In this document: piece after piece, positions 11,311-32,563 of the stretch
Position numbering within the stretch: the first letter of the stretch is position 1
Layout: every line of letters starts with the position of its first letter
IMG/VR virus record: IMGVR_UViG_3300020576_003687
Direction: 5' to 3' (one strand)
DNA: 64,000 nucleotides
Source: an uncultured virus (IMG/VR IMGVR_UViG_3300020576_003687)
Lineage: Duplodnaviria; Heunggongvirae; Uroviricota; Caudoviricetes
Made by a program: the position numbers and the translations under genes
The notes under the pieces: generated by a model
The model's input: the letters and a program-made list of their open reading frames with translations, nothing else
Databases searched by the model: none
What the model was told of the DNA's origin: nothing

Positions 11311-11896
11311 GAAGATAGATTTTGAATATGAATATGTCAATGGGGAGGCTGTTTTTTCCATTTGGCTAAGGCTTTATGAGTCCGCTGATTGCGGTATGTC
11401 TATTGGCGTTTTAGACGAGAATGGCGAGATCGCTATTAGCTTTCCTATTGGAATGTTTGCCGAGGTAACTGATTTCTTGATTGCTCAAGGAGTTCTTGAA
11501 GGTAGGCGAACCGTTTCGGCTACATTGCCGGTACAAAAGACTGTTACTCAAAAACCATCTTCGTTGCCTAAGCCAAGATTGGTTTCTTCAAGACCAATAT
11601 CTAAGCCCAAAACAAGTAGCGGTCCAACTATTGTTGATTTAGAGCAAGACGGCGGCGACGACCTATCTGAGTATCCTGAGGAAGTCAGGGAGCAGATTCG
11701 TCAAGAGCAAGCAAGGTTGCATGAGATTCAAAATGCAATTGATGGTGCTACTCCAACAGTATCTTTGTCAGCAGCGGCTGAGCAAACCGATCTTCCTGAA
11801 GAAGAAGCAAAAAATATCTTGCAAGAAAGACAAGCTGCTCTCAAGAGAGCGCAAACCTCAGCGAAGAAGATTAAGAAGAGAGATGACGACGAGTGA
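11291..11896 (+). CDS. Hypothetical protein
   Basis: 201-aa ORF with SD AGGAG. Confidence 0.6.
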   Translation: MAIKSNKKIDFEYEYVNGEAVFSIWLRLYESADCGMSIGVLDENGEIAISFPIGMFAEVTDFLIAQGVLEGRRTVSATLPVQKTVTQKPSSLPKPRLVSSRPISKPKTSSGPTIVDLEQDGGDDLSEYPEEVREQIRQEQARLHEIQNAIDGATPTVSLSAAAEQTDLPEEEAKNILQERQAALKRAQTSAKKIKKRDDDE

Positions 11897-12129
11897 GCCA
11901 ATATAAGTGTAAACTTGTTCCTCTTGAAAGGCTTCCTGTTGGGCCTCTTGGAGTTGTTTCCCCTTTATGCAATGATTGCGAAACAGTGGATTGCTCTAAT
12001 CCCATTGAGCCTGTAAAGATAACTGTCTTTGGAAGACAGGTTGAATGGAAGGTATACAAAAAGAACTTTGTAACATCCATTGTTGTTCAATGCGCAGGAC
12101 ATAGTAAAGACAATGCCAACGTAAATTAA
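11893..12129 (+). CDS. Small Cys-rich hypothetical protein
   Basis: GTGA overlap with upstream gene; CxxC..C motif; its stop overlaps the stop of the antisense endonuclease. Confidence 0.55.
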   Translation: MSQYKCKLVPLERLPVGPLGVVSPLCNDCETVDCSNPIEPVKITVFGRQVEWKVYKKNFVTSIVVQCAGHSKDNANVN

Positions 12130-12896
12130 ATAGCAGATAAATAAGAATTTCTTTTTCTGCTCAGGAAGACGTTGGAATCTTTGTATAGCCAATCCATTAT
12201 TGTTTTTACAGAACTGTATGCGGTACTATCATATTTGTAGGCACTTCCTGATCTAAATAGTTTTGGTCTCTTTTTTATTCCTAAATGTTCATGTAATTTG
12301 TTTTGCATTTCATCTAAAAATATTTCACTTCCTATAATAGATAATCTTGGCCCTCCCCTTGCTCCGTTATTATGATGTGAAACGCATCCATCTCCGTCGA
12401 AATATCCTCTTATAAAGTGTCTATCCATATTCTTATTTAGGATTGGGTATTGGAGTATTAGTGATTTTCTCGGAGTGCATCCAAGTTTGATTAAATCATT
12501 ACTTATCTTATCTGAATACAAACGAATATAAGAAAAATCGTGCTTATTATGATAATCATGTATTTTGATAGAAGAGTTTATATCTTTACTAAATAGTTCA
12601 AGATGTTCTCTGTCTTTTCTTGATAGGCAAATGGATAAGAATTTTGAACAACCCTTTATTTCCGAAACACATCCATCTGCAAAAATAAAACCAAGCCAAT
12701 AAGCTTTTCTTTCTGAATCTATATTCTCGAAATAGTTTTCGTTAAATTTAGGTTTTATTGCCGATATTTTATATGAAGAGCATATGCTGTAAAATGTAGA
12801 TTGAGATATTTGAAGTTTGTCTAAAATTTCTTTTCTAGAGTTACTACTATTTATTGTTTTTTCTAATTCACGCTTTGATATGATTATCTTTTTCAT
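12126..12896 (-). CDS. Free-standing two-motif LAGLIDADG homing endonuclease
   Basis: AYWLGFIFADG and HFIRGYFDGDG, FNENYFENID, LIKLG.TPRKS, FLSRKR; AT-rich; antisense to the surrounding genes. Confidence 0.9.
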   Translation of the reverse strand: MKKIIISKRELEKTINSSNSRKEILDKLQISQSTFYSICSSYKISAIKPKFNENYFENIDSERKAYWLGFIFADGCVSEIKGCSKFLSICLSRKDREHLELFSKDINSSIKIHDYHNKHDFSYIRLYSDKISNDLIKLGCTPRKSLILQYPILNKNMDRHFIRGYFDGDGCVSHHNNGARGGPRLSIIGSEIFLDEMQNKLHEHLGIKKRPKLFRSGSAYKYDSTAYSSVKTIMDWLYKDSNVFLSRKRNSYLSAI

Positions 12897-12945
12897 ACAT
12901 TTATATTAGTTATGCGGCATGAAAATTCCTTCAAGGAGATCAAAA

Positions 12946-13224
12946 ATTCCAACCTACATATACCAGATACTGAGTAAAGAGGGCGAGCCAATAGGTGAGA
13001 CTATTGAGATCTTTCAAAACATGAAAGACGACGCTCTTACTGTTGATCCTGAAAGCGGCAAGCCAATCCGTAGGGCTATTTGCGCGCCAGCCATTAGAGA
13101 CGGCAAACCAGCTTGGGACAGATGCTCTGATGTTCGTGATCATATTAGGAAAACACGGCCTAAGTGGATTCATGATAAAGAAAAGGGCATTCGAGAGCGA
13201 TTTGACCCCAAGAAGCATGGTTAG
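12946..13224 (+). CDS. FmdB-family (zinc-ribbon-like, Cys-less) protein, probable ATT start
   Basis: (I)PTYIYQ.....GETIEIFQNMKDDALTVDPESGKPIRRAI resembles FmdB MPTYxY..FE..Q.M.D..L..CP.CG...R.I; SD AAGGAG 12933-12938 lies 7 nt before ATT 12946. Confidence 0.65.
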   Translation: MPTYIYQILSKEGEPIGETIEIFQNMKDDALTVDPESGKPIRRAICAPAIRDGKPAWDRCSDVRDHIRKTRPKWIHDKEKGIRERFDPKKHG

Positions 13225-13234
13225 TGTTTTACTC

Positions 13235-13270
13235 TAAATCCGAGTCCTGTAGCGTCGATACATGACTATG
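13235..13270 (+). promoter_or_regulatory. Sigma28-like promoter TAAA-N15-GTCGATAC upstream of dnaE-N
   Basis: TAAA 13235-38, 15 nt, GTCGATAC 13254-61; ATG 13268 is 9 nt after GTCGA. Confidence 0.5.
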
Positions 13271-14656
13271 GCAAAAATCATAAGCAATAGCGATTTTGTG
13301 CATTTGCACAATCATTCCGAGTATTCGTCTTTTGACGGCTTGAATAAGATATCTCAGTTTCCTAAGGCTGCTAAGGAAATGGGGTTTAAGGCCTTAGCGT
13401 TGACTGACCACGGTAATATGGGTGGAGCGGTCAAGTTTACTCAAGAATGCAATAAAGAGGGTATAAAGCCTATTATTGGTTGCGAATTCTACTTGTCTAA
13501 AGACCGTCACTTGAGAGGCGAAAAGAAAGACGGCAACAAGATTGTGAAGGGTCAACCTGACGGAAGAAAAGGTAATCGCCACTTGGTTCTTATTGCAAAG
13601 AACTGGAAAGGTTGGCAGAACCTCTGCTCTTTATCTCAAAAGTCATGGACCGAAGGCGTTTATATTGACCCAAGAATTGATATCAACCTTTTGGCTGAAC
13701 ATAGTGAAGGTTTGATTTGCAATTCTGCTTGTCTTAGTAGCGTCATCAATGCTAATTTGCTTCATGACCGCTATGACCAGGCTAAGAAGTCTGTTGCTCT
13801 TTTCAAGGATATCTTCAAGGAAGACTTCCATTTAGAGGTTATGTATCATGGAATTGAAGCGGAAGCGGCAATTATTCCTGACATCATAAAGCTTGGTAAT
13901 GAAATGAATGTTCCAATCATTGCTACAAATGATTGTCACTATTGCAAGAAAGAGCATGGTTCTTCGCAAGAAATACTCATGTGCATGAGTACGAGTCGCT
14001 GTCTTAACGATCCAAAGAGATTGCATTTTCCGTACCATGAATTCTATCTCAAGTCTGCTCTTGAGATGTCTGTAATGTTTGGATCTCATCCAGAGTTTCT
14101 TCTCAATACAGTCATGGTTGCTGATAAGATAGATGCTAAGGATATTTTTGAGAACATGACTTCTGGCATGAGATTGCCTAGGTATAAGATTCCAGAAGGC
14201 TTTGCCTCTCCGTTTGATTATCTTTCTCATATTGCATGGGAGGGTATGAGGAAACTTGGATGGGACCGTAGCGAGCCTCATAAGGAAAGACTCAAGAGAG
14301 AGCTTGAAGACGTTAGAGTTGCATGGGAGAATAACAAATACGATTTTGCAACTTACTTTCTTATCGTTCGAGATTACATCCAAGAGGCTACTAATAAGTC
14401 AATTCTTACTGGTTGTGGTCGAGGTTCGGGTTATGCAAGCGTTCTTCTTAGGGTTCTTGGTATCGCTTATGGTCCAGACCCATTGAAGTATGACTTGATT
14501 TGGGAGCGGTTCCTTGGCTTCGACTGGAAACATTTTATTCAAGAGAAAGACTTCTTTGATGAAGATGTCATAATTTCTGATGAAAAGCCTATTTTAGAAG
14601 CAAAAGAAGACGACAGAGACGTTGTAGATGATCCAGGTGGAGTTGATAGGTATTAA
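13268..14656 (+). CDS. dnaE: DNA polymerase III alpha, N-terminal piece (PHP domain + start of palm)
   Basis: FVHLHNHSEYS, ALTDHGN, IKPIIGCEFY, IATNDCHY, YFLIVRDYI, GCGRGSG, DPLKYDLIWERFL, then an acidic tail and stop. Start 13262 or 13268. Confidence 0.92.
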   Translation: MAKIISNSDFVHLHNHSEYSSFDGLNKISQFPKAAKEMGFKALALTDHGNMGGAVKFTQECNKEGIKPIIGCEFYLSKDRHLRGEKKDGNKIVKGQPDGRKGNRHLVLIAKNWKGWQNLCSLSQKSWTEGVYIDPRIDINLLAEHSEGLICNSACLSSVINANLLHDRYDQAKKSVALFKDIFKEDFHLEVMYHGIEAEAAIIPDIIKLGNEMNVPIIATNDCHYCKKEHGSSQEILMCMSTSRCLNDPKRLHFPYHEFYLKSALEMSVMFGSHPEFLLNTVMVADKIDAKDIFENMTSGMRLPRYKIPEGFASPFDYLSHIAWEGMRKLGWDRSEPHKERLKRELEDVRVAWENNKYDFATYFLIVRDYIQEATNKSILTGCGRGSGYASVLLRVLGIAYGPDPLKYDLIWERFLGFDWKHFIQEKDFFDEDVIISDEKPILEAKEDDRDVVDDPGGVDRY

Positions 14657-14685: not shown

Positions 14686-15210
14686 ATGAATTATAAATCA
14701 ATGAAAGGTGTTGGTTCGTTCTTTGTGCAAGAGGATTTTGACAAATATGATGAACCAGCTAAAAACGCAGCTTATGCTCTTCTTAAGTTTCTTGAAAAGA
14801 AAGGCTTTGCTAAAAATGTGGACATGAATGTAGAAAACGAACTGGAACAGCCTTATCATCGAGATCTAGAAGTTATTGTTAATGGAGTCCGTCGAGTAAT
14901 TAGCACAGAAGTAAAAACTGCTTGGATGTATGGAAAAGGGAGATTTCCATATGAGACTGTTCGTGTTATGAATAGAAAAAGTGAGGACTGCCATAAGAAA
15001 AATGCACTATTCACAGACTTTTTTGTTACGAGTGTTGATAAAAATGGTATAGCTGTTATAAGTCGAAAAGATTATGATAGTGTCGTTCCTAATGAAGTAA
15101 TGACAACAAGAGGATTGGATTGGGGACGAGAGATACCTATTGATAAAGTAATTTTTTATAGGCGAATAGACGCCAAAAACAATATCTGGGAAAAGAGCAT
15201 TGGAATCTAA
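14686..15210 (+). CDS. Hypothetical protein, possible PD-(D/E)xK nuclease
   Basis: RDLEVIVNG.....STEVKTAW gives a D...ExK arrangement. Confidence 0.45.
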   Translation: MNYKSMKGVGSFFVQEDFDKYDEPAKNAAYALLKFLEKKGFAKNVDMNVENELEQPYHRDLEVIVNGVRRVISTEVKTAWMYGKGRFPYETVRVMNRKSEDCHKKNALFTDFFVTSVDKNGIAVISRKDYDSVVPNEVMTTRGLDWGREIPIDKVIFYRRIDAKNNIWEKSIGI

Positions 15211-16059
15211 ATGGCAGACACAATCATAAAAAGAGTTGGCGGAAAAGTTAAGCTGAGAGAGTGGATTAAAGATCTGCTACCAAAGCATAATCTATATTGC
15301 GAGCCTTTTGGTGGTAGCTTTGCTGTGGGTTTTGTTTTACCCAAAACTGACGGCAAGTACCGTTTGGTTTATAATGACTTGGATAGTCATGTTTGGAATC
15401 TATTTAGAGTTCTTAGAGATTATAAAGATGCCTTTATTGAGAAGGTCGAATTAACGCCGTACTCCAGGGAAGAGTTTGAAAAAGCAGTTGAATATATTGA
15501 GTCTAAACGAGACTTTCTAAAAGAAGATCCTGTTGAGTGGGCAAGAAACTATCTTATCTACAATAGACAATCCATGTTTGGAAAAGAAGACGGAACATGG
15601 TGTGTTTCGAGAACAGGGGAGAATATATGTTTGTCTTGGGCTGGTTTGCCTCCCTTTATTGATAGATGTGCTAGGTTTTTCAAGGGTGTTTACATTGAAA
15701 ACCTTGACTATAAGGAATGTATCAAAAAGTGGGATTGCCCAGAGGCCTTGTTTTATATTGATCCTCCGTATGAGCATGTTGAAAAGATGTTCTATCATGT
15801 CAATATGACTGACGGATTTATTCATGAAGACATGGCTAAGTATTTAGACGGGATTCAAGGGTCTGTTGCGATATCTTACTATTCCAGCCCGAACATTAAA
15901 GATCTTTACCCGGCAAGTAAGGGTTATACTATCTACAAGAAAAGCGTTGTCAAGCATATGCAGACCTTAGAAGAAAAAGATTCTGTTGAAGAACTCTTGA
16001 TTGTTAAGAAGAGTTCTTATGCGATGGCTGGGGAAAAGCAACCAATGTGTTTCGAGTGA
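15211..16059 (+). CDS. Dam-family (D12) DNA adenine methyltransferase
   Basis: RVGGK, YCEPFGGS, VYNDLD, IENLDY, FYIDPPY. Confidence 0.9.
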   Translation: MADTIIKRVGGKVKLREWIKDLLPKHNLYCEPFGGSFAVGFVLPKTDGKYRLVYNDLDSHVWNLFRVLRDYKDAFIEKVELTPYSREEFEKAVEYIESKRDFLKEDPVEWARNYLIYNRQSMFGKEDGTWCVSRTGENICLSWAGLPPFIDRCARFFKGVYIENLDYKECIKKWDCPEALFYIDPPYEHVEKMFYHVNMTDGFIHEDMAKYLDGIQGSVAISYYSSPNIKDLYPASKGYTIYKKSVVKHMQTLEEKDSVEELLIVKKSSYAMAGEKQPMCFE

Positions 16060-16063
16060 AATT

Positions 16064-16312
16064 ATGGGATATCATAAATCTAAAATCGCAAAAGGCAAGT
16101 ATGGCGAATCTTCTAAGATAAAAGAGGAAATAGAAGAGTTGCAGGATGCTGAAAGACAGAGCAATAGGATAATGGCTCTTGTTGAGCTTTCTGATATCGT
16201 TGGAGCTATTCAAGGCTACTTAGAAAGACAGCATCCAAGCATAACCATGCAGGACTTGATTATCATGTCCAATGCAACTCGGTCTGCTTTTATGGACGGC
16301 ACAAGATCATGA
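16064..16312 (+). CDS. MazG/HisE-like all-alpha NTP pyrophosphatase
   Basis: KIKEEIEELQDA....ALVELSD (EExxE...ExxD). Confidence 0.6.
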   Translation: MGYHKSKIAKGKYGESSKIKEEIEELQDAERQSNRIMALVELSDIVGAIQGYLERQHPSITMQDLIIMSNATRSAFMDGTRS

Positions 16313-16929
16313 GAGTAGAATACGATATTGTTGTAAAAGCTATTACTTATTATGAGCGTGCTGGATATGCTTATATTGATGTCCCGTGGCAGGCCTCTCT
16401 TGATGTTCTTATGGTAACGGCTCCTTGTTTCTTGACTAAGGAAGATGTTGCGAAAGCTAATCCCAATGGCTTTGTTGCCTCTGGAGAACAATCGTTTTTG
16501 TAAATGGCTATTGATAAGAAGCTTTCTAAGGGCAAATATTGTTGCGCTACTCCTTGTTTTAGACCGAATGATGACCTTAAGGACGGTCTTCATTTCCCAA
16601 ATTTTTTCAAAGTTGAACTGATAGAATATATAGGCGATGATCTTTGCGATGTTACAAAGGTAGCGGGCAGGGTTGATTCCATGATTGAAAAGGCTGCAAT
16701 TTTCATGGAAAATGTCTTAGGTAAAGACCTTTCAATTGAGCCAATTATTGATGACGAAAGAATTGGATGTCAGAGTTCTTTTTGTTGTGATATAGTAACG
16801 CCTATGACGAAGATAGAGTTAGGGTCATACGGTTATAGAGTGGCAGATCAAATTGGCTCTTGGATTTATGGTACAGGCGTTGCTCTTCCGAGATTGACTA
16901 TTGTTGGAGACAATAAATGGCTGATATGA
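16309..16929 (+). CDS. Class II aminoacyl-tRNA-synthetase-like catalytic domain, interrupted by in-frame TAA (16501-16503)
   Basis: GY.YIDVPW, VASGEQSFL*MAID, TPCFR (motif 2), FFKVEL, IELGSYG, YGTGVALPRL (motif 3); both ORFs are in the same frame. Confidence 0.65.
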
Positions 16930-18893
16930 AGCAGGAAATCTTGGAGGCAGTTAAGGATAAGTCTCTTTTGCCTCTGATTGAGAAAGAACTAGCTCAAATG
17001 GAGCAAACAGAAGGCTTGGACGAAAAACCAGTTCTACAAAAGTTCCATTCAATCTGGAAGCATTCTCATGGTAAGGTTGGTCATCGTAATGATATCAACT
17101 CCTGGACCGCATATGCTCTTGGTATGACTGATAAAAAGCCTGACGAAGGTTCGGAATTCTTGCCAAAGCGTCGCGCTTTTGCCCGTAAAGGTTTTCCCGA
17201 TATTGACTCGGACTTCGACTACGAACGTAGAGACGAGATGTACAAGTACATCATTGATACCTACGGAAGAGAGCATGTTGGTAATATTGGAACATACTCT
17301 GGCCTTAAGATGAAATCGTTTGTTCGTCGAGCGGTCAAGGCTATAGATCCAGAGAATACCTTTTTCAAGGGTTATGATGAATGGAAGACAAAGACGAATG
17401 AACTCGGCGACGAGATATTGAATGCTTTGCCGCCTCAATATGGCGCTTTTTTGAAAGTAACAGATGATCAAGGCAATGAACACCCAGTCAAGACCGTTCA
17501 GGATGCTTATAAGTGGTGTCCAAAGTTTGCATATTACATGGAGAAGTACCCTGCTATACTTGAACACTCTAGGAGTATTGAAGGACTTTTATCTATATTC
17601 GGAGTACATGCTGCCGGTATTGTTATATCGAATGAGCCTCTTGGACGTATAGCTCCGCTTAAGCAAAGCAAGATTACGGATACAGCCGAGGACGGCGAAG
17701 TTAAATATGCTTTTGCGACTCAGTTTGAGTACAATGACTTAGAGTTTCTTGGACTGATCAAGTTCGATATTCTTGCTCTTAGTACGCTTTCGGTTATTGG
17801 CCGATGCTGTAAGCTTGTTGAGCAAAACTACGGCTTGAAGATCAATATCTATGACTTGCCTCTTGAAGACAAGAAGACCTTTGATTTATACAAGAGCGGC
17901 AAACTGACTGGCGTATTCCAATGCGAAGAGCCTGGAATGCAGAAGACCATGATTAACATGGGAGTTGACTCCCTTGACGACATCATGGCAGGCATTGCGT
18001 TGTATCGTCCTGGTCCGATGGATTCGATTCCAACCTATTGCGCTCGTAAGCATGGTTCAGAATCTATCAACTACTTCCATCCTTCTCTAAAGAAGTATGT
18101 TGAGCCTTATCTCAAGAAGACGTATGGATTGCTTGTATATCAAGAGCAAGTCATGCAGATTTGTAACTCAATTGCAGGATTCTCTATTCCTGAGGGTTAT
18201 GTTGTTATCAAGGCAATCGGTAAGAAGAAACCAGAGCTTTTGGCAAAGTATAGAGCTAGGTTTATCTCTGGCGCAAAAGAGAATAATGTAGACGAAAAGA
18301 TTGCTCAAGACTATTGGGACAAAGTAATCATGCCATTCGCTGATTACGGCTTCAATAAGGCGCATGCTTGCTGCTATGCTTACAACTCTTATGTTACTGC
18401 TTATTTGAAGGCTAACTTTCCAGAAGAGTTCCTTACAGCTTATCTCAATGTCGAAATTAATCGCTCAAACTATGACAAGGTTGACGCTCTTGAAAAGATG
18501 TCTAAAGAGATGAACATAGAGATTTTGCCAAGGCAAATCAATCATTGCAAGCTTGAGTATTTCATTGTTAAGAAGGCAGATCCCGCAAATGGTATTCCAA
18601 AGTCGCAAATCATGCCTTCTATAAAGTGCAAGGGCTTGAGTCATAATGCTGCAACTAATATTGTAGAGCATCAGCCTTATGCTAGTCTTCAAGAGTTTGC
18701 GGAAAAGACTGATACGAAGATGGTTGATGCGAAATCGTTTGAGTCTTTGTTGAATGCAGGCTTCTTTAAGCCAGCAAAGGGTGGCGGTCGAAGCGCAAAT
18801 AGAGAAGAAGTTCTTAAGTCTTTCGAAATTATTAGAGAAGACTTGAAGAGAGCCAAGAAGAAAGGCGTCATTGTAGGCAACATTTTTGGGTGA
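16917..18893 (+). CDS. dnaE: DNA polymerase III alpha, C-terminal piece (catalytic palm, fingers, HhH)
   Basis: FPDIDSDF, GVHAAGIVIS, GLIKFDILAL, GVFQCE, ALYRPGPM, TYGLLVYQEQVMQ, YGFNKAHA, AYLKANFPEEF. Confidence 0.92.
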   Translation: MADMKQEILEAVKDKSLLPLIEKELAQMEQTEGLDEKPVLQKFHSIWKHSHGKVGHRNDINSWTAYALGMTDKKPDEGSEFLPKRRAFARKGFPDIDSDFDYERRDEMYKYIIDTYGREHVGNIGTYSGLKMKSFVRRAVKAIDPENTFFKGYDEWKTKTNELGDEILNALPPQYGAFLKVTDDQGNEHPVKTVQDAYKWCPKFAYYMEKYPAILEHSRSIEGLLSIFGVHAAGIVISNEPLGRIAPLKQSKITDTAEDGEVKYAFATQFEYNDLEFLGLIKFDILALSTLSVIGRCCKLVEQNYGLKINIYDLPLEDKKTFDLYKSGKLTGVFQCEEPGMQKTMINMGVDSLDDIMAGIALYRPGPMDSIPTYCARKHGSESINYFHPSLKKYVEPYLKKTYGLLVYQEQVMQICNSIAGFSIPEGYVVIKAIGKKKPELLAKYRARFISGAKENNVDEKIAQDYWDKVIMPFADYGFNKAHACCYAYNSYVTAYLKANFPEEFLTAYLNVEINRSNYDKVDALEKMSKEMNIEILPRQINHCKLEYFIVKKADPANGIPKSQIMPSIKCKGLSHNAATNIVEHQPYASLQEFAEKTDTKMVDAKSFESLLNAGFFKPAKGGGRSANREEVLKSFEIIREDLKRAKKKGVIVGNIFG

Positions 18894-19277: not shown

Positions 19278-20456
19278 ATGCCGTCGATAAATGAACAGCT
19301 TTTAGATGACATTTTTGGTATTCCCAAAGATGGATCGAATATCAGAGAAGAAGACGACGAAAGCCAGGAAACTTCTTATGCTGAGGTCATAAAGACCGGA
19401 GGCGCTGAAGGTTTTGAGCAGAAGTCAAAAAAGCTGAATGAGGTCTTAGCAACAGATGCTCCTCCGAGTGAGGATACTTATGTTGCAAAGGAGCAAGGCA
19501 ATGAAGCGAAGATCAAACAAGAACCAGTCGTTCAGCAACCAATCACAATCGCAGAACCCAGCAAGAACTCGTTTGAGAAGATACTCAAGCAGTCAGTTCT
19601 CCCTGGAAAGCCTGTCAGCGAGGAGACTAAACCCGTGGCGCAAAAACAAACCGCTCATAATGAAGATACAGACGCTGGAGAAGAAGCTGAGGAGACAAAG
19701 GAGGAGTCCGTAACGACTCCTTCGGTTGCGAGTAAGGCAGACGAAGATGGCTGGACTCTTGTTCCTCCGTCGCCAATGTTTGCTCATTTCTATTCGGAAA
19801 AGCATAGCTTTATCAAGTCGCTTACAAGGGGTGGAAAACCTCTTCTTGTTGATAAGCTTATGGCCGAGCTTAGGACTTGTCATGTTAGTACAAGTACAGA
19901 GTTGATGGATCTGGAGGGAATGGCTGATAAGCTCAATAAGATTCAATCTCTTCTTGATAGAGTTGTTGAAATCAAGATTCAAGCAACAGGTCAATGTTCC
20001 GCCTCTAAAAGAGGCGTTGAGTTACTAAGGGGCGTTCTTGCAAAGGTTACTTACGAAAAGCCTGCTGCTCGTCAAGACGGCGTTATTCATGATCATATGA
20101 AAGATGTTGAAATGTATGCTTGCGAAGTTGAGGCTCTTGAACAAGCAGCTAAAGACGTTTATCATAACTTGCTTGAGTCGAAAGAGATTCTTAGTCGTAA
20201 GATTAGCATAACGCTTGAACTTCTTAAGCAGCAAAATATTACGGACAGTCATGAAAAGAACTATGCGAACTTGTCCGATAAGGCTAAGAAGGTTGTTGAG
20301 AACGTTTCTGCTCGTTCCTCTGTTTCGCCAGAAATTGCAGCAGAAGGTTTTGATAGATTAGAGGTTCAAGAAGCTGTGAAAGCTCAATCTTCGGCAGCAA
20401 AAACGTCGATGAGTGGTCCAGGAAAGACAGGGAAAATAAGTTGGTTGGATGACTAA
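19278..20456 (+). CDS. Hypothetical protein (acidic low-complexity N-terminus, coiled-coil C-terminus)
   Basis: 392-aa ORF with SD AAGGA. Confidence 0.65.
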   Translation: MPSINEQLLDDIFGIPKDGSNIREEDDESQETSYAEVIKTGGAEGFEQKSKKLNEVLATDAPPSEDTYVAKEQGNEAKIKQEPVVQQPITIAEPSKNSFEKILKQSVLPGKPVSEETKPVAQKQTAHNEDTDAGEEAEETKEESVTTPSVASKADEDGWTLVPPSPMFAHFYSEKHSFIKSLTRGGKPLLVDKLMAELRTCHVSTSTELMDLEGMADKLNKIQSLLDRVVEIKIQATGQCSASKRGVELLRGVLAKVTYEKPAARQDGVIHDHMKDVEMYACEVEALEQAAKDVYHNLLESKEILSRKISITLELLKQQNITDSHEKNYANLSDKAKKVVENVSARSSVSPEIAAEGFDRLEVQEAVKAQSSAAKTSMSGPGKTGKISWLDD

Positions 20457-27142: not shown

Positions 27143-27547
27143 ATGAGTTCATTTACTATACGAATTTTTGGTTCGCCAGAATGCGAGCGATGCCAAGCTC
27201 TAGTTAAGGCTTTCCAGTACCATGATATTGCGTATGAGTATGTTGATGCTGATGCTGCTGAAAATGAAGCATTATGCGATACCTATAATGTAGACGAACT
27301 TCCGCATATACAGGCAAGATATTCTGAAAGCGGAAAGGTTTTTCATACTCATATAGGTTACACTAGTCCAATTGCTTTTATAGAGAAGGCTAGAGAGCAT
27401 ACAAAACAATTGGAAGAGTTCTTCAAAATGAACGCAAGCGTTGCGAATAAGGTTGTAGGTCATCAAGAAGTAATGAGGTCCGTTCATGAGCAGCAATCAA
27501 AGCGTCCCTGCGGAGGGTGTTCGAAGAAAAATCAGCCTAAACCCTGA
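27143..27547 (+). CDS. Glutaredoxin/thioredoxin-like protein
   Basis: IFGSPECERC, YEYVD, YNVDELPHI. Confidence 0.7.
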   Translation: MSSFTIRIFGSPECERCQALVKAFQYHDIAYEYVDADAAENEALCDTYNVDELPHIQARYSESGKVFHTHIGYTSPIAFIEKAREHTKQLEEFFKMNASVANKVVGHQEVMRSVHEQQSKRPCGGCSKKNQPKP

Positions 27548-30500
27548 ACAGCTAGAAGCCGTTGAGCATGTCATGGGACCGTGTTTTGTATGCGCCTGCC
27601 CTGGCTCTGGGAAGTGCATAACTGGAGATTCTATCGTTGTTCTTGACGACGGATTTTCTACTATTGATAATAGCAAGGTTGATTGGATTAGAGCGTTTGA
27701 TTCAGAATCTTTGAATCAAAGTAATTATCGTTCTATAAAAATCACAAATTTTGTTGACTCCGGCATTAAATCCACTCTTAAAGTTACAACTGAACAAGGT
27801 TATTCTATCCAGGGAACTCACCATCATCCTATTGCTATATTAAATAGGAAATGTGAACTAGAATGGAAAAAGCTTGAGGATATCCAAGTTGGGGATATTG
27901 CGGTTCTTCAAATGGAGAAGCAATCTGATAATCCTATAATACGCCATCCAAAATTTTATGATGTTTGGTATGTTCTTGGGTTGATGTTTGGTGATGGTTA
28001 TTTGGTAAGAAAAAATGAACTTAGCATAACAACTAATGATGATGAAATTCAAGCCTCGTTTACTCAGTTCTTTAGAGAACGATTTGATTATACTGTAAAT
28101 GTTTACTATGATAAGAGGCGAATCGGTCTTAGATCTTTAGTTATCTGTTCTAAGGATATAAAAAAGCAATTACAAGATATATTTGGTGATTTTTTTAGTT
28201 TGGCTTGCGATAAGAGGATGACATCGCAAATGCTATCTGCTGGAAGAGGAGAGATAGGCAGCTTTATACAAGGGCTGTTTGATACTGATGGGTATGTTAG
28301 CGGAAATAATGTTGAAATATGTCTTTGTTCTCAAAAGCTTATAGAGCAGCTTCAAACTATTCTTTTGAGATTTGGAGTGTTTTCTTCGCTAAAAACAAAA
28401 GAAGTTGATGGATCTTTATATTATCGTTTACATATTTCAGGCGAAGATATGCGTAGATTTGAGAAGAATATAGGTTTTAGACTTCCTAGAAAACAGAAAC
28501 AACTCAGAGAAATTTGTTGCAAGATTTCTAATCCCAACAGAATTATACCTTTTGCAGATTATTTGGTTTCTCAAATTTATAGTAAAGTAAAATTACAAAA
28601 ACCGGAAAACTACGATCCTAAAACTTCTAATTTTTATGATATCAACGGAGATTTTGTTAGGCTCATAAGATATTGTTCAAAATCCAAAGCTGTATTACGA
28701 GGTTTAACTGAAACGGCAGCTTATAAACTAATATCTGCTTGTGAAGTTGCCAATATTAATTGTATTGCTTTGGATCAATTGAGGTTTTTGGTAGACAATT
28801 TTGGATTTAGTCCGGTTGAATCTGTGGTTGATGGTGGGCCTCAGCATGTTTATGACTATTTTATTGAGGGTTCACATAATTTTGTTGCCAATGGGTTTGT
28901 AAACCATAATACTCGTGTTATTGTTGAAAGAGTTATTCGCCTTATTGAGAAGGGTTATAGCCCCCGTTCTATTCTTTGCATAACATTCACCAATAAAGCT
29001 GCAAACGAAATGAAGGAAAGAGTTTGTAAGCAGCTTGGCGAAACGCAAGGTCAAGAAGTCTATATAAGCACTTTCCACGCTCTTTGCGCAACCATTATCA
29101 GGAAGTATGGCTCCTATATCGGTTATGGACTCAATACCACTATTCTTGACGACGAAGATCAAGAAGGCCTAATGGCTCAGTGCGCTAGACAAGCGGGCCA
29201 TGAATGGAATGCGCAGCAAATAAAGAGCCTTATTTGGAAGGCTAATGAACTTCGAGAAAACCTTATTTCTGAGGACGATTTTCCTTCTCATTTCAAGCAC
29301 GAAGCCGAAGGCGAGGTTTGCAGAGAGTATGTTCTTCGTATGAGAAAGAACAACCAGATAGATTTCAGTGGTTTGTTGTCTGAAACTATTAGACTCCTTG
29401 AAAAGGACGGTTCTGTTCTTTGTAAGTTACAAACTCGTTTTGATTTTATTCAGGTTGACGAAGCTCAAGATACAAACTTTGCTCAGTTTAGAATTGTTCA
29501 GTTAATTGGCGCTCATAATAATGTTCTTATAGTTGGAGACCCGGACCAAGGTATCTACTCTTGGCGTGGCGCTCGTTACAAGAACATAGAAGATTTCATC
29601 AACATCAACAAGGCGAAGGTTGTTAACCTACCTCATAACTATCGATCAACGCCAGAGATTGTCAAAGTTGCTTCAACGCTTATAAAGCACAATAAGAACC
29701 GTCAGCAAACTCTTGAATTCAAGACGGGTAATGAAAGCGGACAGCCTGTTGAATGCATTTGTCTACCAACGCCAGAGCAGGAAGGGGCATGGATTGCTCA
29801 TCGTATTAAGCATATGATTGACAACGAAGGTTATAAGCCGCATGATTTTGCGGTTCTGTATAGAATTAATGCGATGTCGAGAGCTATTGAGCAGGGTCTT
29901 ATGGCTGTTGGCGTAACTTATCAAGTTATTGGAGGCTTTAGCTTCTTTGACCGTTCTGAGATCCGAGACTGTCTTGCAATGTTGCGGTTCATTGTTAATC
30001 CTCTTGATGGAACTGCTTTATCTCGTTTCATCAATAAGCCTTCTCGCCGAATCGGAGAAGTATCTTTGGGTAAGATTGAGAATTTTGCTAACGATCAAGG
30101 TATCAATCTTATGGAGGCCATGAAGCGGGTTAGAGAGTTTGCCTCTGGCAATGATAAAGCAAGGGTTATACAGGGATGCGAAGAAATCCATGCAGCGTTT
30201 TCGTTTGACAGAACTGGTATGTCAATAGGCGATGTTTTGGATAATATCGTTGTTCGATTGGGTTACTATCGTTATCTTGAGTCTAAGTACGAAACAAAAG
30301 AACTTGACGACAGGAAGGATAACGTTCAAGAACTTATCAATGCTTGCGCTTTGTATACAGAAAAGAGAAATAACGATATTGCTGGATACTTGAATAACAT
30401 AGCTTTGCAAACCTCGTCTGATAAGGATACGGAAGAGAATACTGTTTCTCTAATGTCTCTTCACGCCTCAAAGGGCTTGGAGTTCCCTGTCGTATTTATG

Positions 30501-30746
30501 CCTGGTCTTGAAGAAGGTCAGCTTCCTCATAAGCGAGCCTTGATGGAAAGAGACGGCTTAGACGAAGAGCGAAGACTTTGTTATGTTGGAATGACAAGAG
30601 CGCAACAAAGATTGATTGTTTCTTTTGCGGATACGAGAATGCAGCGATTCAAGAATGGCGGTATATCTTTCGAGCCGACTAAAAAGAGTCGTTTTCTTCA
30701 AGAATCAGGGCTTGCTAATACAATAAGAACGATCCGCGCAAGATAA
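27486..30746 (+). CDS. uvrD: UvrD/PcrA helicase with intein
   Basis: LNPEQLEAV, ACPGSGK|intein|TRV, ITFTNKAANEM, STFHA, VDEAQD, VGDPDQ.IY.WRGA, NYRS, HASKGLEF, EERRLCYVGMTRA. Confidence 0.95.
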   Translation: MSSNQSVPAEGVRRKISLNPEQLEAVEHVMGPCFVCACPGSGKCITGDSIVVLDDGFSTIDNSKVDWIRAFDSESLNQSNYRSIKITNFVDSGIKSTLKVTTEQGYSIQGTHHHPIAILNRKCELEWKKLEDIQVGDIAVLQMEKQSDNPIIRHPKFYDVWYVLGLMFGDGYLVRKNELSITTNDDEIQASFTQFFRERFDYTVNVYYDKRRIGLRSLVICSKDIKKQLQDIFGDFFSLACDKRMTSQMLSAGRGEIGSFIQGLFDTDGYVSGNNVEICLCSQKLIEQLQTILLRFGVFSSLKTKEVDGSLYYRLHISGEDMRRFEKNIGFRLPRKQKQLREICCKISNPNRIIPFADYLVSQIYSKVKLQKPENYDPKTSNFYDINGDFVRLIRYCSKSKAVLRGLTETAAYKLISACEVANINCIALDQLRFLVDNFGFSPVESVVDGGPQHVYDYFIEGSHNFVANGFVNHNTRVIVERVIRLIEKGYSPRSILCITFTNKAANEMKERVCKQLGETQGQEVYISTFHALCATIIRKYGSYIGYGLNTTILDDEDQEGLMAQCARQAGHEWNAQQIKSLIWKANELRENLISEDDFPSHFKHEAEGEVCREYVLRMRKNNQIDFSGLLSETIRLLEKDGSVLCKLQTRFDFIQVDEAQDTNFAQFRIVQLIGAHNNVLIVGDPDQGIYSWRGARYKNIEDFININKAKVVNLPHNYRSTPEIVKVASTLIKHNKNRQQTLEFKTGNESGQPVECICLPTPEQEGAWIAHRIKHMIDNEGYKPHDFAVLYRINAMSRAIEQGLMAVGVTYQVIGGFSFFDRSEIRDCLAMLRFIVNPLDGTALSRFINKPSRRIGEVSLGKIENFANDQGINLMEAMKRVREFASGNDKARVIQGCEEIHAAFSFDRTGMSIGDVLDNIVVRLGYYRYLESKYETKELDDRKDNVQELINACALYTEKRNNDIAGYLNNIALQTSSDKDTEENTVSLMSLHASKGLEFPVVFMPGLEEGQLPHKRALMERDGLDEERRLCYVGMTRAQQRLIVSFADTRMQRFKNGGISFEPTKKSRFLQESGLANTIRTIRAR
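27615..28910 (+). mobile_element. Intein with LAGLIDADG endonuclease in UvrD Walker A
   Basis: Starts CITGDS after GSGK; GTHHH block B; VLGLMFGDG and FIQGLFDTDG; ends HNFVANGFVNHN before Thr; 432 aa. Confidence 0.93.
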
Positions 30747-30766: not shown

Positions 30767-31504
30767 TTAAATAGCCCCATCTTTTCTGGTATGATATCCT
30801 GTACGGAAGTAAACTTCCGTACCATGAATGCCTATTTTATTTAGTTCTCTTACTTGTTTGTATAATCGCTCCCTCCATTCTACAACTTCTTGTGGAGAAG
30901 TTCTAACCCTCCCGTCTTTCCCTTTTCTTTGCTCTTCTAAGACTATTTCAACAAGTTTTTTAGGTATACGAGGTTTACTGGCTAAGTGATAAGCTCCTTT
31001 CACAGAAAGTAAAAGGCCGTTTTTTACTGCTTGAGATACTGAGCTTAGATTTTTGTACCCCAAGATATGACAAACTTCTTGGCTACTAAGAAGTTCGTCA
31101 TTTTTCCAGTTTGGATATTTTTGACTGAACCAGTAACTGTGCATTAGATACTTGCGATTTCTGGTCTCTTCTAATTCTAGAATAATTTTGGCTTGTTGTT
31201 TCTTTACAACAAGAAAAGGAAGCAAGGTTTTACAGAAAGCAATAGCTTGCTGATTGTTACATTCAAAAACAAAGAGTTCTTTGCTGTTTTCTGATTGTCC
31301 TTTTTCTTTTCTCAGGCTACCTCTAAAAATGGAGTGTAATAGATTTGGAATTTGAGGAGTTACTTGTTTTAGTCCAACTTTTGCTTGATAAGTAGGATAA
31401 TAACAGTCTTTGATGACTCTTGTTTTGTAATCTGATTTTTTTATTGAAAACCAACCATCAGAGTCCATTGCTCCTGCCAGATAGGCTAAGGTTTCGTTCT
31501 TCAT
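30767..31504 (-). CDS. Free-standing single-motif LAGLIDADG homing endonuclease with HTH-like insertion
   Basis: LAYLAGAMDSDGWFSI, LLPFLVVKKQQA, RERLY..VRELN; LLSSQEVCHILG resembles an excisionase-type HTH; SD GGAGG on the minus strand. Confidence 0.85.
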   Translation of the reverse strand: MKNETLAYLAGAMDSDGWFSIKKSDYKTRVIKDCYYPTYQAKVGLKQVTPQIPNLLHSIFRGSLRKEKGQSENSKELFVFECNNQQAIAFCKTLLPFLVVKKQQAKIILELEETRNRKYLMHSYWFSQKYPNWKNDELLSSQEVCHILGYKNLSSVSQAVKNGLLLSVKGAYHLASKPRIPKKLVEIVLEEQRKGKDGRVRTSPQEVVEWRERLYKQVRELNKIGIHGTEVYFRTGYHTRKDGAI

Positions 31505-31562: not shown

Positions 31563-32563
31563 ATGGCAAACTATGAATTATTATGCGGTGATACGGAAGG
31601 AGTGTTGGGCGGAATGAGTCCCAATAGCGTTCATGCTATTGTGACTTCTCCGCCCTATTAGCTTATTATCAGTTGCGAGATTATGACTTTCAAGATCAGA
31701 TTGGTCTTGAAAAGACTCCTGACGAATATATAGCTAAGCTTGTTAGCGTGTTTTCTGCCGCTAAACGTGTTCTTAGAAATGACGGAACTGTATGGCTTAA
31801 TATAGGCGATACTTACGCAAGAACTTCCGGCGAAGGATATAAGAAGGGAGATCTTTTAGGGATTCCCTGGATGCTTGCTTTTGCTTTGAGAAAAGACGGT
31901 TGGTTTTTGAGAAGCGCTATAATTTGGGCCAAACCCAATCCTTTACCTGGAGGAGTCACAGATAGACCTGTTTCTTCGCATGAGTATTTGTTTCTTCTTG
32001 GTAAGTCTGAAAACTATTATTATGATCAAGAGTCTATAAAAGAAAACGCTGTTGAGCGTAATTCTGATGGTTCTTTTAAGAGACGAATTAAGAGGGACGT
32101 TTGGACTGTCCCTGTTGCGTCTTTTAAGGGCGCTCATTTTGCTGTTTTTCCTCAAGGCTTGGTTGAGCCTTGTATTTTGGCTTCAACTAGCGGTCATGGT
32201 TGTTGTAAAGTATGCGGTTCTCCTTATGAGAGACAAGTTCAGAAAAATCGCTATTCAACTCGCCCTGGCATACATAATAAGGTTGATAAGAAGGGTTTTG
32301 CAAATAGGGATTCGGGAAGGCATCTAACTGATACAAAGACTGTCGGATGGTTGAAAACTTGTAGTTGCGAAACAAATGAAGTTGACAAAAGCGTGGTTCT
32401 TGATATTTTCTGTGGTTCAGGTACGACAGGTGTTATAGCCTTGCAAAATGGGCGGAAGTTCATTGGAATAGATGGTAAACAAGAGTATTTGAATATGGCG
32501 AAGAACCGCCTTATAAGAGAAGAAGAAGTAATAGGAGTTTTGAATGCATCTAAGGGACTTTAA
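31563..32563 (+). CDS. Beta-class N4C DNA methyltransferase split by stop + frame change right after SPPY (bypass candidate or pseudogene)
   Basis: 31563-31658 encodes MANYELLCGD...VHAIVTSPPY then TAG; another frame continues YYQLRDY..QIGLE.TP..YI, HFAVFP..LVEPCI, VLDIFCGSGTTG. Confidence 0.8.

Follow-up and report, generated by a model that had tools for sequence, protein, structure and literature searches.

In fungal mitochondria, gene hybrids formed by mORFs are known for atp6 of Allomyces macrogynus and for atp6, atp9, cox2, and nad3 of Glomus sp.; as described in PMC3630166, these mORFs arrive with a foreign, differently spelled C-terminal segment and the native C-terminus is left behind. 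N-terminal duplications of atp9 are mentioned in PMC7487136. In the yeasts Torulaspora and Lachancea, every time a WHO element integrates it replaces the 3' end of FBA1, without any splicing (PMC7282813). T4-like phages have the free-standing endonucleases Seg and Mob, whose spread is called "intronless homing," as well as genes split by a homing endonuclease gene (HEG), namely nrdA of Aeh1 (mobE), 39/60 of T4 (mobA), and gene 43 of phage 25 (PMC2988022). The subject of this study is an 833-bp insert at the start of a small gene in IMG/VR record IMGVR_UViG_3300020576_003687, a stretch of 64,000 nt from an uncultured jumbo phage that is called the window here and to which all coordinates refer. 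Judged from its sequence, the insert is likely to be a mobile, splicing-free homing-endonuclease cassette of the gene-end-replacement type, located at the 5' end of a phage gene. It is placed with that type because a substitute copy keeps the host open reading frame (ORF) whole and the native end stays behind as a remnant. The principle of the gene-end-replacing endonuclease is already published for fungal mitochondria and yeasts, and the 5'-end phage form is its mirror image.

The insert and the rebuilt gene start

The features on which the argument depends are as follows.

12124-12956, no strand: insert of 833 bp, delimited by the two window junctions aligned with empty alleles and by a dip in GC
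12113-12124, plus strand: old gene start, now a three-codon stub, ATG CCA ACG TAA (ATGCCAACGTAA), read from the sequence
12113-12123, plus strand: left copy of an 11-bp repeat, ATGCCAACGTA, the same at 11/11 nt as the uninterrupted gene start in contig L005
12946-12956, plus strand: right repeat copy and substitute start, ATT CCA ACC TA (ATTCCAACCTA), read from the sequence
12897-12945, no strand: 49-nt spacer at the right end of the cassette, invariant across the occupied alleles seen
12933-12938, plus strand: AAGGAG Shine-Dalgarno (SD) motif, followed by 7 nt (12939-12945) and then by ATT at 12946
12919-12921, plus strand: rival start ATG, in frame, from the ORF list
12126-12896, minus strand: free-standing double-motif LAGLIDADG homing endonuclease gene, 256 residues, from Pfam, motifs, an AlphaFold2 (AF2) model, and Foldseek
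12946-13224, plus strand: host gene, a 92-codon Zn_ribbon_8-like ("FmdB-like") ORF without cysteine pairs, from alignments and a match to Pfam PF09723 below its cut-off
11893-12129, plus strand: upstream cysteine-rich ORF of 78 residues, from the ORF list

An earlier note on this DNA, made from its letters alone, had described a stub, an antisense ORF, an AAGGAG motif, an ATT start, and an ORF that follows this start, and all five are found where that note put them. Its proposal that an endonuclease cassette lies within the first four codons of a gene is borne out by L005, which reads through the site at which the window has the 833-bp insert. The old start is a stub, as it had also claimed, and a second, altered copy of codons 1-4 (with ATT and ACC) heads the remaining ORF. 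In the proposed mechanism the old ATG would stay behind as the three-codon stub and the host gene would resume at the substitute start.

The two copies of the repeat, left ATGCCAACGTA and right ATTCCAACCTA, agree at 9/11 positions and form an imperfect direct repeat, the chance of at least 9/11 agreement at one fixed pair of places being 2e-4. Relative to the left copy, the right one has G>T in codon 1 and G>C in the third base of codon 3. It shares the reading frame of the 88 codons that remain, and in alignments it falls on the MPTY or MPxY start of relatives. Beyond the repeat, similarity extends to only one further A, on the left side. Owing to the repeat there are about 12 equivalent placements of the insert (12113-12945, for example, is as good as 12124-12956), so insertion "inside the Tyr4 codon," as the earlier note worded it, fits but is just one of them.

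The 833 bp divide into the 771-nt endonuclease ORF, 2 nt to its left, the 49-nt spacer, and the 11-nt substitute start. GC content is 0.25-0.35 within the insert and 0.40-0.475 on either side of it. The genes neighbouring the cassette are all on the plus strand. On the minus strand the spacer precedes the start of the endonuclease, and on the plus strand it bears the translation signals of the host gene; at the opposite edge of the insert, TTAA (12126-12129) ends the endonuclease, read on the minus strand, and also holds the new stop of the upstream ORF on the plus strand. Transposon-like ends were considered and rejected: there are no terminal inverted repeats at the borders of the insert, and the inverted pairs found are of 10-25 nt and internal.

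Occupied alleles were read as DNA in the window, in L001, in G001 (the same as L003), in L008, and in contigs of runs X4, X8, X9, and X10. The junctions are letter-identical in L001, G001/L003, and L008. They are also found on contigs of 4/4 runs, which belong to four studies: the contigs of X4, X8, and X9 bridge both junctions and that of X10 the right junction only, the breaks in the X10 contig at 12088/12124 and 12669/12679 not being interpretable. No variant occurs among the contigs of the four runs at 12856-12991. Run X9 is an RNA library, and a contig from it is no proof of transcription.

Uninterrupted alleles and polymorphism

Uninterrupted alleles were read as DNA in L005, which is close to the window, and in L002, L006, and L007, which are more distant. 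L005 is a 165-kb metagenome contig with a host protein 95% identical to that of the window and flanks at 89-91% at the DNA level; its gene start is uninterrupted (ATGCCAACGTACATATAT; in context gacgATGCCAACGTACATATATCAG, and at greater length agtaaagacgATGCCAACGTACATATATCAGATACTG), which supplies the contiguous empty allele that had been predicted for a relative without the HEG. The genes of L002 and L007 are likewise uninterrupted and start ATGCCATTCTATGAG; that of L006 is uninterrupted and starts ATGCCATATTACCAA. The cassette is thus present (window, L001, G001) or absent (L005) at one precise site in near-identical genomes.

At 90% identity the host-protein cluster contains 14 distinct sequences. 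Three are 101-residue forms from about 10 contigs, all reading MKIPSRRSK-IPTY, and these are occupied alleles called from ATG 12919; ten are 92-residue forms, all with an MP(T/R)Y start; one is a fragment. Codon 1 encodes Ile in 3/3 occupied variants and Met in 10/10 full-length uninterrupted variants, and the ATT codon is tied to the cassette as had been claimed. The 92-residue P0023 is identical to occupied P0012 at 91/91 residues past codon 1. Because an uninterrupted variant matches an occupied one in this way, the cassette is, as far as these alleles go, polymorphic and probably mobile. Occupied P0018 has the Asn10/Arg39 background of P0001 (the L005 protein), and occupied P0011 and P0012 have the Ser10/Lys39 background of P0023. 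All four combinations of cassette presence or absence with the markers at residues 10 and 39 therefore exist, and the presence of the cassette is uncoupled from nearby markers, the nearer of which starts 27 nt from the junction. The four combinations would be the outcome of homing with short conversion tracts; later recombination would yield the same.

The records nearest to the window are contigs of 101-334 kb, and the runs that contain the stretch are labelled as wastewater, activated sludge, biofilm, riverine, and digester metagenomes. A scan of metagenomes for further alleles gave three loci, and the search of genome contigs gave none. In the phage-record collection, a protein search with the host gene returned 0 matches, and at the DNA level there was a single match, of 71 nt, to the endonuclease of uncultured phage cr6_1. 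A 23-nt pattern taken from the right end of the cassette and searched in IMG/VR matched only the contig of L001.

The endonuclease

The antisense ORF matches Pfam LAGLIDADG_3 in two stretches (E 1.5e-12; 48 bits against a cut-off of 22.5) and carries the two motifs WLGFIFADGCV and IRGYFDGDGCV. Residues D74-G75 and D167-G168-D169-G170 are invariant across the 41 homologues aligned, and the family comprises at least 7711 database proteins at E <= 1e-5. The AF2 model (pLDDT 94.1, pTM 0.87) has an N-terminal three-helix domain, as modelled a DNA-binding domain, and two alpha/beta core domains, for which the model and Foldseek together give the alpha-beta-beta-alpha-beta-beta-alpha arrangement. The top Foldseek matches are I-Tsp061I (E 6e-10, TM 0.51/0.62), I-AniI, the bI3 maturase, and the I-OnuI family, all monomeric LAGLIDADG homing endonucleases at TM 0.5-0.6. 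When the PDB was searched by the endonuclease sequence, there was no match.

None of the four full-length endonuclease variants in the protein collection is disrupted, and identity among them is 99% or higher. The haplotypes of the window, of the L001 type, and of the X4 contig, all three occupied, differ in this ORF by 8 synonymous and 4 non-synonymous substitutions. Because this departs from neutrality (P = 0.0005 with Nei-Gojobori sites, 0.016 with transitions only), the endonuclease gene is judged to be kept functional by selection.

On the minus strand a terminator-like hairpin with a T-run (12023-12039) lies 87 nt past the endonuclease stop, in the conserved upstream gene. Its stem is present by eye in the empty allele L005 too, and the hairpin is thus older than the insert; it may end the antisense transcript just by accident.

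The host gene and its upstream neighbor

The host ORF opens ATT CCA ACC TAC ATA TAC and aligns from codon 1 with relatives starting MPxY. At E <= 1, 8/10 family members match Pfam PF09723, with a best E of 5.4e-8, and the profile aligns from residue 1. P0006 scores 32.3 bits, short of the cut-off of 34.4, P0001 and P0023 score 15-16 bits, and the window protein has no match. Proteins of the FmdB or Zn_ribbon_8 type are expected to have two CxxC zinc knuckles. Cysteine pairs occur in residues 1-45 of 0/14 cluster members, and the corresponding positions read ILxKEGEP and DPESGKP. The name "FmdB-like" given by the earlier note can be kept in the sense of similarity to PF09723 below the cut-off, but the curated cut-off is not reached and the zinc-binding cysteine pairs are lacking. 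In all relatives seen, the host gene adjoins the gene for DNA polymerase III alpha.

Two relatives of the host protein known from short Logan contigs have unusual N-termini. P0007 (111 residues) has Leu in place of Met at the first position of the family, behind a called extension of 19 residues, and P0005 (106 residues) has a 14-residue extension ahead of MPIY; these are either mis-called starts or possibly further altered starts.

The last codon and the stop of the upstream ORF (12127-12129) lie in the insert. Its tail differs from allele to allele: in L002 and L007 it overlaps the next gene by TAATG, and in L005 and L006 it runs about 35 nt into the next gene. The tail thus appears variable and is evidently dispensable. 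Because the flanking genes overlap in the empty alleles, the insert lies in coding sequence and is not intergenic.

Possible translation of the rebuilt gene

The earlier note had pointed to a consensus SD at ideal spacing, and AAGGAG does stand 7 nt before ATT 12946. With 22 AAGGAG on the plus strand of the 64,000 nt, the probability of finding one at any of 7 fixed positions ahead of a given codon is about 0.0024. Nine of the 22 sit 5-8 nt before the canonical start of an ORF of at least 50 residues (one of these, at 19488, is inside a longer ORF), and SD motifs precede most genes of the phage. ATT 12946 corresponds by homology to the ancestral ATG, and a protein begun at this codon would have the ancestral length; an N-terminal extension is found in no close relative. 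The AAGGAG borne by the cassette would recruit ribosomes and initiation would most likely occur at AUU 12946, yielding an ancestral-length fMet-Pro-Thr-Tyr protein at a low level, with the unaided ATG 12919 as a second and possibly co-used start.

In the empty alleles no strong SD precedes the native start, which overlaps the upstream gene; on these grounds this start is probably weak and coupled. For this reason the combination of a strong SD with a poor ATT codon might restore a similar low level of expression. Our assessment is that the use of ATT 12946 as a start is close to evenly balanced, that ATG 12919 is a serious candidate for the main start though it falls short of an even chance, and that a silent host gene is improbable; both starts may be in use.

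Competing explanations

The same cassette could be present and the host gene be translated from ATG 12919 all the same, giving a protein of 101 residues with a basic extension of nine residues (MKIPSRRSK) and with the ATT as an internal Ile codon; AAGGAG would then be the relic of a former start consisting of an SD and an ATG, decayed after the upstream ATG took over. The earlier note had named this codon solely as a refutation of its own proposal. The ATT frame is real, but ATG 12919 shares it with no stop in between and is the earliest canonical start past the stop at 12907-12909. All occupied alleles seen keep this ATG, so the 101-residue protein agrees equally well with the sequence, and ATG 12919 stands as an unrefuted rival. 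It was also the start picked by gene callers (the 101-residue entries). In E. coli reporters AUU initiates at 1-2% of AUG, which makes AUG about 50-100 times better, and the confirmed AUU genes of E. coli are only infC and pcnB (10.1101/063800). The leader is AU-rich and its predicted RNA folding is no better than that of shuffles (z = +0.92), which favors SD-independent initiation; RNA structure masking either start was rejected on the same value. Against this, no SD motif precedes ATG 12919 although most genes of the phage have one, whereas a perfect AAGGAG stands before ATT at a spacing that chance would seldom produce. Moreover, the 10/10 full-length uninterrupted members and 8/10 more distant relatives start at MPxY or MAxY without an extension, and the Pfam profile, which starts at residue 1, also speaks against one. 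A ribosome held on the SD would be expected to compete with one initiating 13 nt upstream. With 3 synonymous and 2 non-synonymous changes between the occupied haplotypes, selection on the host ORF does not discriminate between the two start codons. Taken together, these points make translation from ATG 12919 a real possibility, although not the one that we favor.

Plain gene disruption would mean that the small gene is silent and decaying, the SD and the in-frame codons being remnants or coincidences. The loss of the canonical ATG would agree with this, as would the absence of a Pfam match for the occupied 92-residue reading or for P0012, given that a match is obtained with P0023, whose sole difference from P0012 is at the start. 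Two non-synonymous changes are derived in the copy carried by the window, and one affects the nearly invariant Thr16. However, the 92-codon frame is intact in 3/3 occupied variants from about 10 contigs, P0012 equals an uninterrupted allele throughout its length past codon 1, and the occupied haplotypes differ by more synonymous than non-synonymous changes (3 and 2); an SD at ideal spacing is improbable by chance, and the host gene is kept beside the polymerase gene in all relatives seen. Disruption is therefore unlikely. Removal of the insert as a group I or group II intron or as an intein, which would make the duplication irrelevant, is scarcely credible. Excision of 12124-12956 from the transcript would exactly restore the ancestral frame, but a search with the 4227 families of Rfam at E <= 1 gave 0 matches in 11500-13600 on either strand, so that no ribozyme is present by this search, and 771/833 nt are taken up by an ORF on the opposite strand, leaving 2 + 49 + 11 nt. 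The plus-strand frame through the insert is closed, and splicing would leave the SD and the substitute start without a purpose. Intron and intein were rejected on the Rfam result and the antisense ORF, and the view of the earlier note that there is no room for either holds.

Several further observations weigh against the reading of the locus as a homing cassette with a rebuilt ATT start. L005 is the only close empty allele seen as DNA, and the other nine 92-residue variants were judged uninterrupted by protein length and the Met start alone. The contigs of X4, X8, X9, and X10 showed no joined (empty) form alongside the occupied form. No sigma-70-type promoter for the endonuclease was found in the spacer, and the region as a whole has 5 promoter-like sites where 6.1 are expected. 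The contexts of endonuclease relatives with 32-40% identity are ordinary co-directional intergenic insertions in 4/4 cases, and antisense placement or placement in a gene start was seen in 0/4 contexts (L010/L011/L013, L014/L015, L016, and L020); the rebuilt start thus belongs to the present cassette and not to the endonuclease clade. Both non-synonymous changes in the host gene are derived in the window, which would fit relaxed constraint, the counts being small. To these are added the conserved ATG 12919 with its 101-residue product and the poor performance of AUU, both considered above, and two features of the flanking divergence. Window and L005 differ by 9-11% on both flanks, with 48-59/60 identical positions in 60-nt windows throughout, and no locally raised divergence or co-conversion tract was found in these windows beside the insert; the 2 differences in 11 nt between the repeat copies lie within the 9-11% background.

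Possible recoding of the substitute start

The homing cassette is predicted to spread by cleavage of the uninterrupted allele in or close to the ATGCCAACGTA/CATATA region, after which repair of the break from an occupied genome in co-infection would copy the cassette in; homing may still be active. For a LAGLIDADG enzyme the cut would be expected to leave a 4-nt 3' overhang. Whether the changes in the substitute start, ATG>ATT and ACG>ACC, are part of this scheme can be argued both ways. They may be neutral divergence or have hitch-hiked from a donor lineage and not be selected protection at all: given the divergence of the flanks, 2/11 is unremarkable, the windows beside the insert are no more diverged than those elsewhere, and ACG>ACC is a synonymous third-position change. 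In addition, insertion by itself splits any homing site that spans the junction. On the other side, few positions of a gene are normally as well conserved as its start codon, and 10/10 uninterrupted members keep Met. LAGLIDADG enzymes are sensitive to changes in the central bases, and the Foldseek matches include PDB entries of I-SmaMI bound to "uncleaveable" central-four variants. Protective recoding is reasonable on general grounds because the duplicated bases restore, beside the intact right half of a site spanning the junction, the greater part of its left half; an unaltered 11-nt copy could recreate a cleavable site, with 9/11 of the left half standing beside the complete right half. It is reasonable also because WHO elements carry allele-specific resistance, in the form of a cleavage-resistant replacement end (PMC7282813). 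We regard neutral origin as an evenly poised question.

The most far-reaching reading joins these elements, and it is doubtful. The endonuclease would force a non-AUG start on the host gene, G>T and the G>C that stands three bases before the junction would make that junction uncleavable, and look-alike sites might serve as an operator. The gene would tolerate an AUU start about 50-fold weaker, offset by the consensus SD. The rebuilt uncleavable site, 45-60 nt upstream of the endonuclease start, might be an operator for self-repression, as I-TevI represses itself in T4 (PMC2988022). An inverted look-alike in the 3' coding end of the endonuclease (12169-12183, minus strand) would be the second binding site. 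This look-alike matches the right junction (12941-12955) at 13/15 positions, and its sequence is a mixture of both repeat copies; the left copy (12113-12122) can pair with it at 9/10 positions. In a shuffle test 13/300 shuffles reached 13/15 (p ~0.04), which is borderline, and the look-alike may be a chance match.

Other selfish elements and split genes in the genome

The phage genome is crowded with selfish endonuclease elements. The 1086-residue ORF of a UvrD-type helicase (27486-30746, plus strand) has an in-frame intein with a LAGLIDADG_3 domain; the Pfam matches are Intein_splicing (E 2.7e-13) and LAGLIDADG_3 (E 6.6e-19, residues 259-330), and the helicase domains begin at 476. In G001, a LAGLIDADG-like stretch (G001:C1:40024-40545; by offset, about the first 350 bases of the window, ORF 1-2049) lies in an open frame of 982 residues; the stretch is 30% identical to residues 30-202 of the endonuclease (E 1e-7) and is probably another intein. 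A second antisense ORF, of 245 residues (30767-31504, minus strand), has a weak LAGLIDADG_1 match (E 0.004) that is below the cut-off, and lies just upstream of an N6/N4 DNA methyltransferase gene (31563-32563, plus strand). The methyltransferase gene is broken right after SPPY by TAG at 31659-31661 and a change of frame, with the remainder starting from TTG at 31673. The break is common to G001 and G002 and marks a pseudogene, a split gene, or a scar.

The gene for DNA polymerase III alpha is in two ORFs, the features of this region being 13262-14656, 14686-16929, and 16917-18893 on the plus strand. The first ORF has the PHP domain and the start of the NTPase domain, and the second has the rest together with the finger and HHH domains. 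Between the halves lie about 2.2 kb with a 174-residue ORF, a Dam-type methyltransferase (15211-16059), and a 141-residue ORF. L005 has the same 464-residue N-terminal piece of the polymerase, and because its similarity to the window ends near 14523, with other ORFs next, the segment between the halves is variable.

Comparison with known systems

If the cassette is what it appears to be, a homing endonuclease can colonize phage coding sequence without an intron or intein at the cost of 11 duplicated bases and a ribosome-binding site. Gene callers extend the host gene to a spurious-looking 101-residue form and overlook the three-codon stub, and ATT or other non-canonical starts beside endonuclease genes may be systematically mis-called. 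Should the ATT start be real and have been imposed by escape from self-cleavage, the locus would show plainly that a selfish element can dictate how strongly a host gene is expressed. Among E. coli genes, infC and pcnB have an AUU start behind an SD with low, factor-sensitive initiation, as is proposed for the phage gene; the AUU of infC is an autoregulatory device of a cellular gene, whereas that of the phage would be the by-product of a mobile element (10.1101/063800).

Among phage systems the T4-like HEGs are closest. They share with the cassette a free-standing gene between or inside conserved genes of the replication module and a presence/absence polymorphism (PMC2988022). Spread by double-strand-break repair in co-infection is described for them in PMC2988022 and would apply to the cassette by inference. 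The T4 examples are GIY-YIG or HNH enzymes that are intergenic or split a gene into two reassembling polypeptides, whereas the cassette has a LAGLIDADG enzyme and discards a stub of three residues (PMC2988022). Unlike the Seg and Mob HEGs, it is not in an intergenic location, as the overlap of the flanking genes in empty alleles indicates. A keyword search of open-access text, including that of PMC2988022 and PMC10448857, gave no phage example of a rebuilt gene start beside a HEG.

The WHO elements share an intein-related LAGLIDADG-type endonuclease and splicing-free homing by gene-end replacement (PMC7282813). Allele-specific cleavage is experimental in WHO elements and predicted for the phage cassette (PMC7282813). 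Unlike the cassette, WHO elements act at the 3' end of FBA1, leave clusters of old ends, and are nuclear and eukaryotic (PMC7282813). The fungal mORFs share a free-standing endonuclease, there LAGLIDADG or GIY-YIG, located in coding sequence without an intron, and an in-frame substitute gene end spelled unlike the native one, which remains as an untranslated remnant (PMC3630166). In the phage the different spelling amounts to 2/11 nt and does not exceed the 9-11% background. Both the mORFs (PMC3630166) and the WHO elements (PMC7282813) replace a 3' end; here it is the 5' end, and the phage cassette must for this reason supply an SD and a start codon. The cassette differs further from the fungal mORFs in its bacteriophage host, in the non-canonical codon at its substitute start, and in the orientation of its endonuclease, which is antisense, whereas that of the mORFs is in phase with the host gene (PMC3630166). 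The substitute is 11 nt long in the phage and 50-240 nt in the fungal mORFs (PMC3630166), and this makes the cassette the most compact form of the "bring your own gene end" strategy known from fungal mitochondria and yeast.

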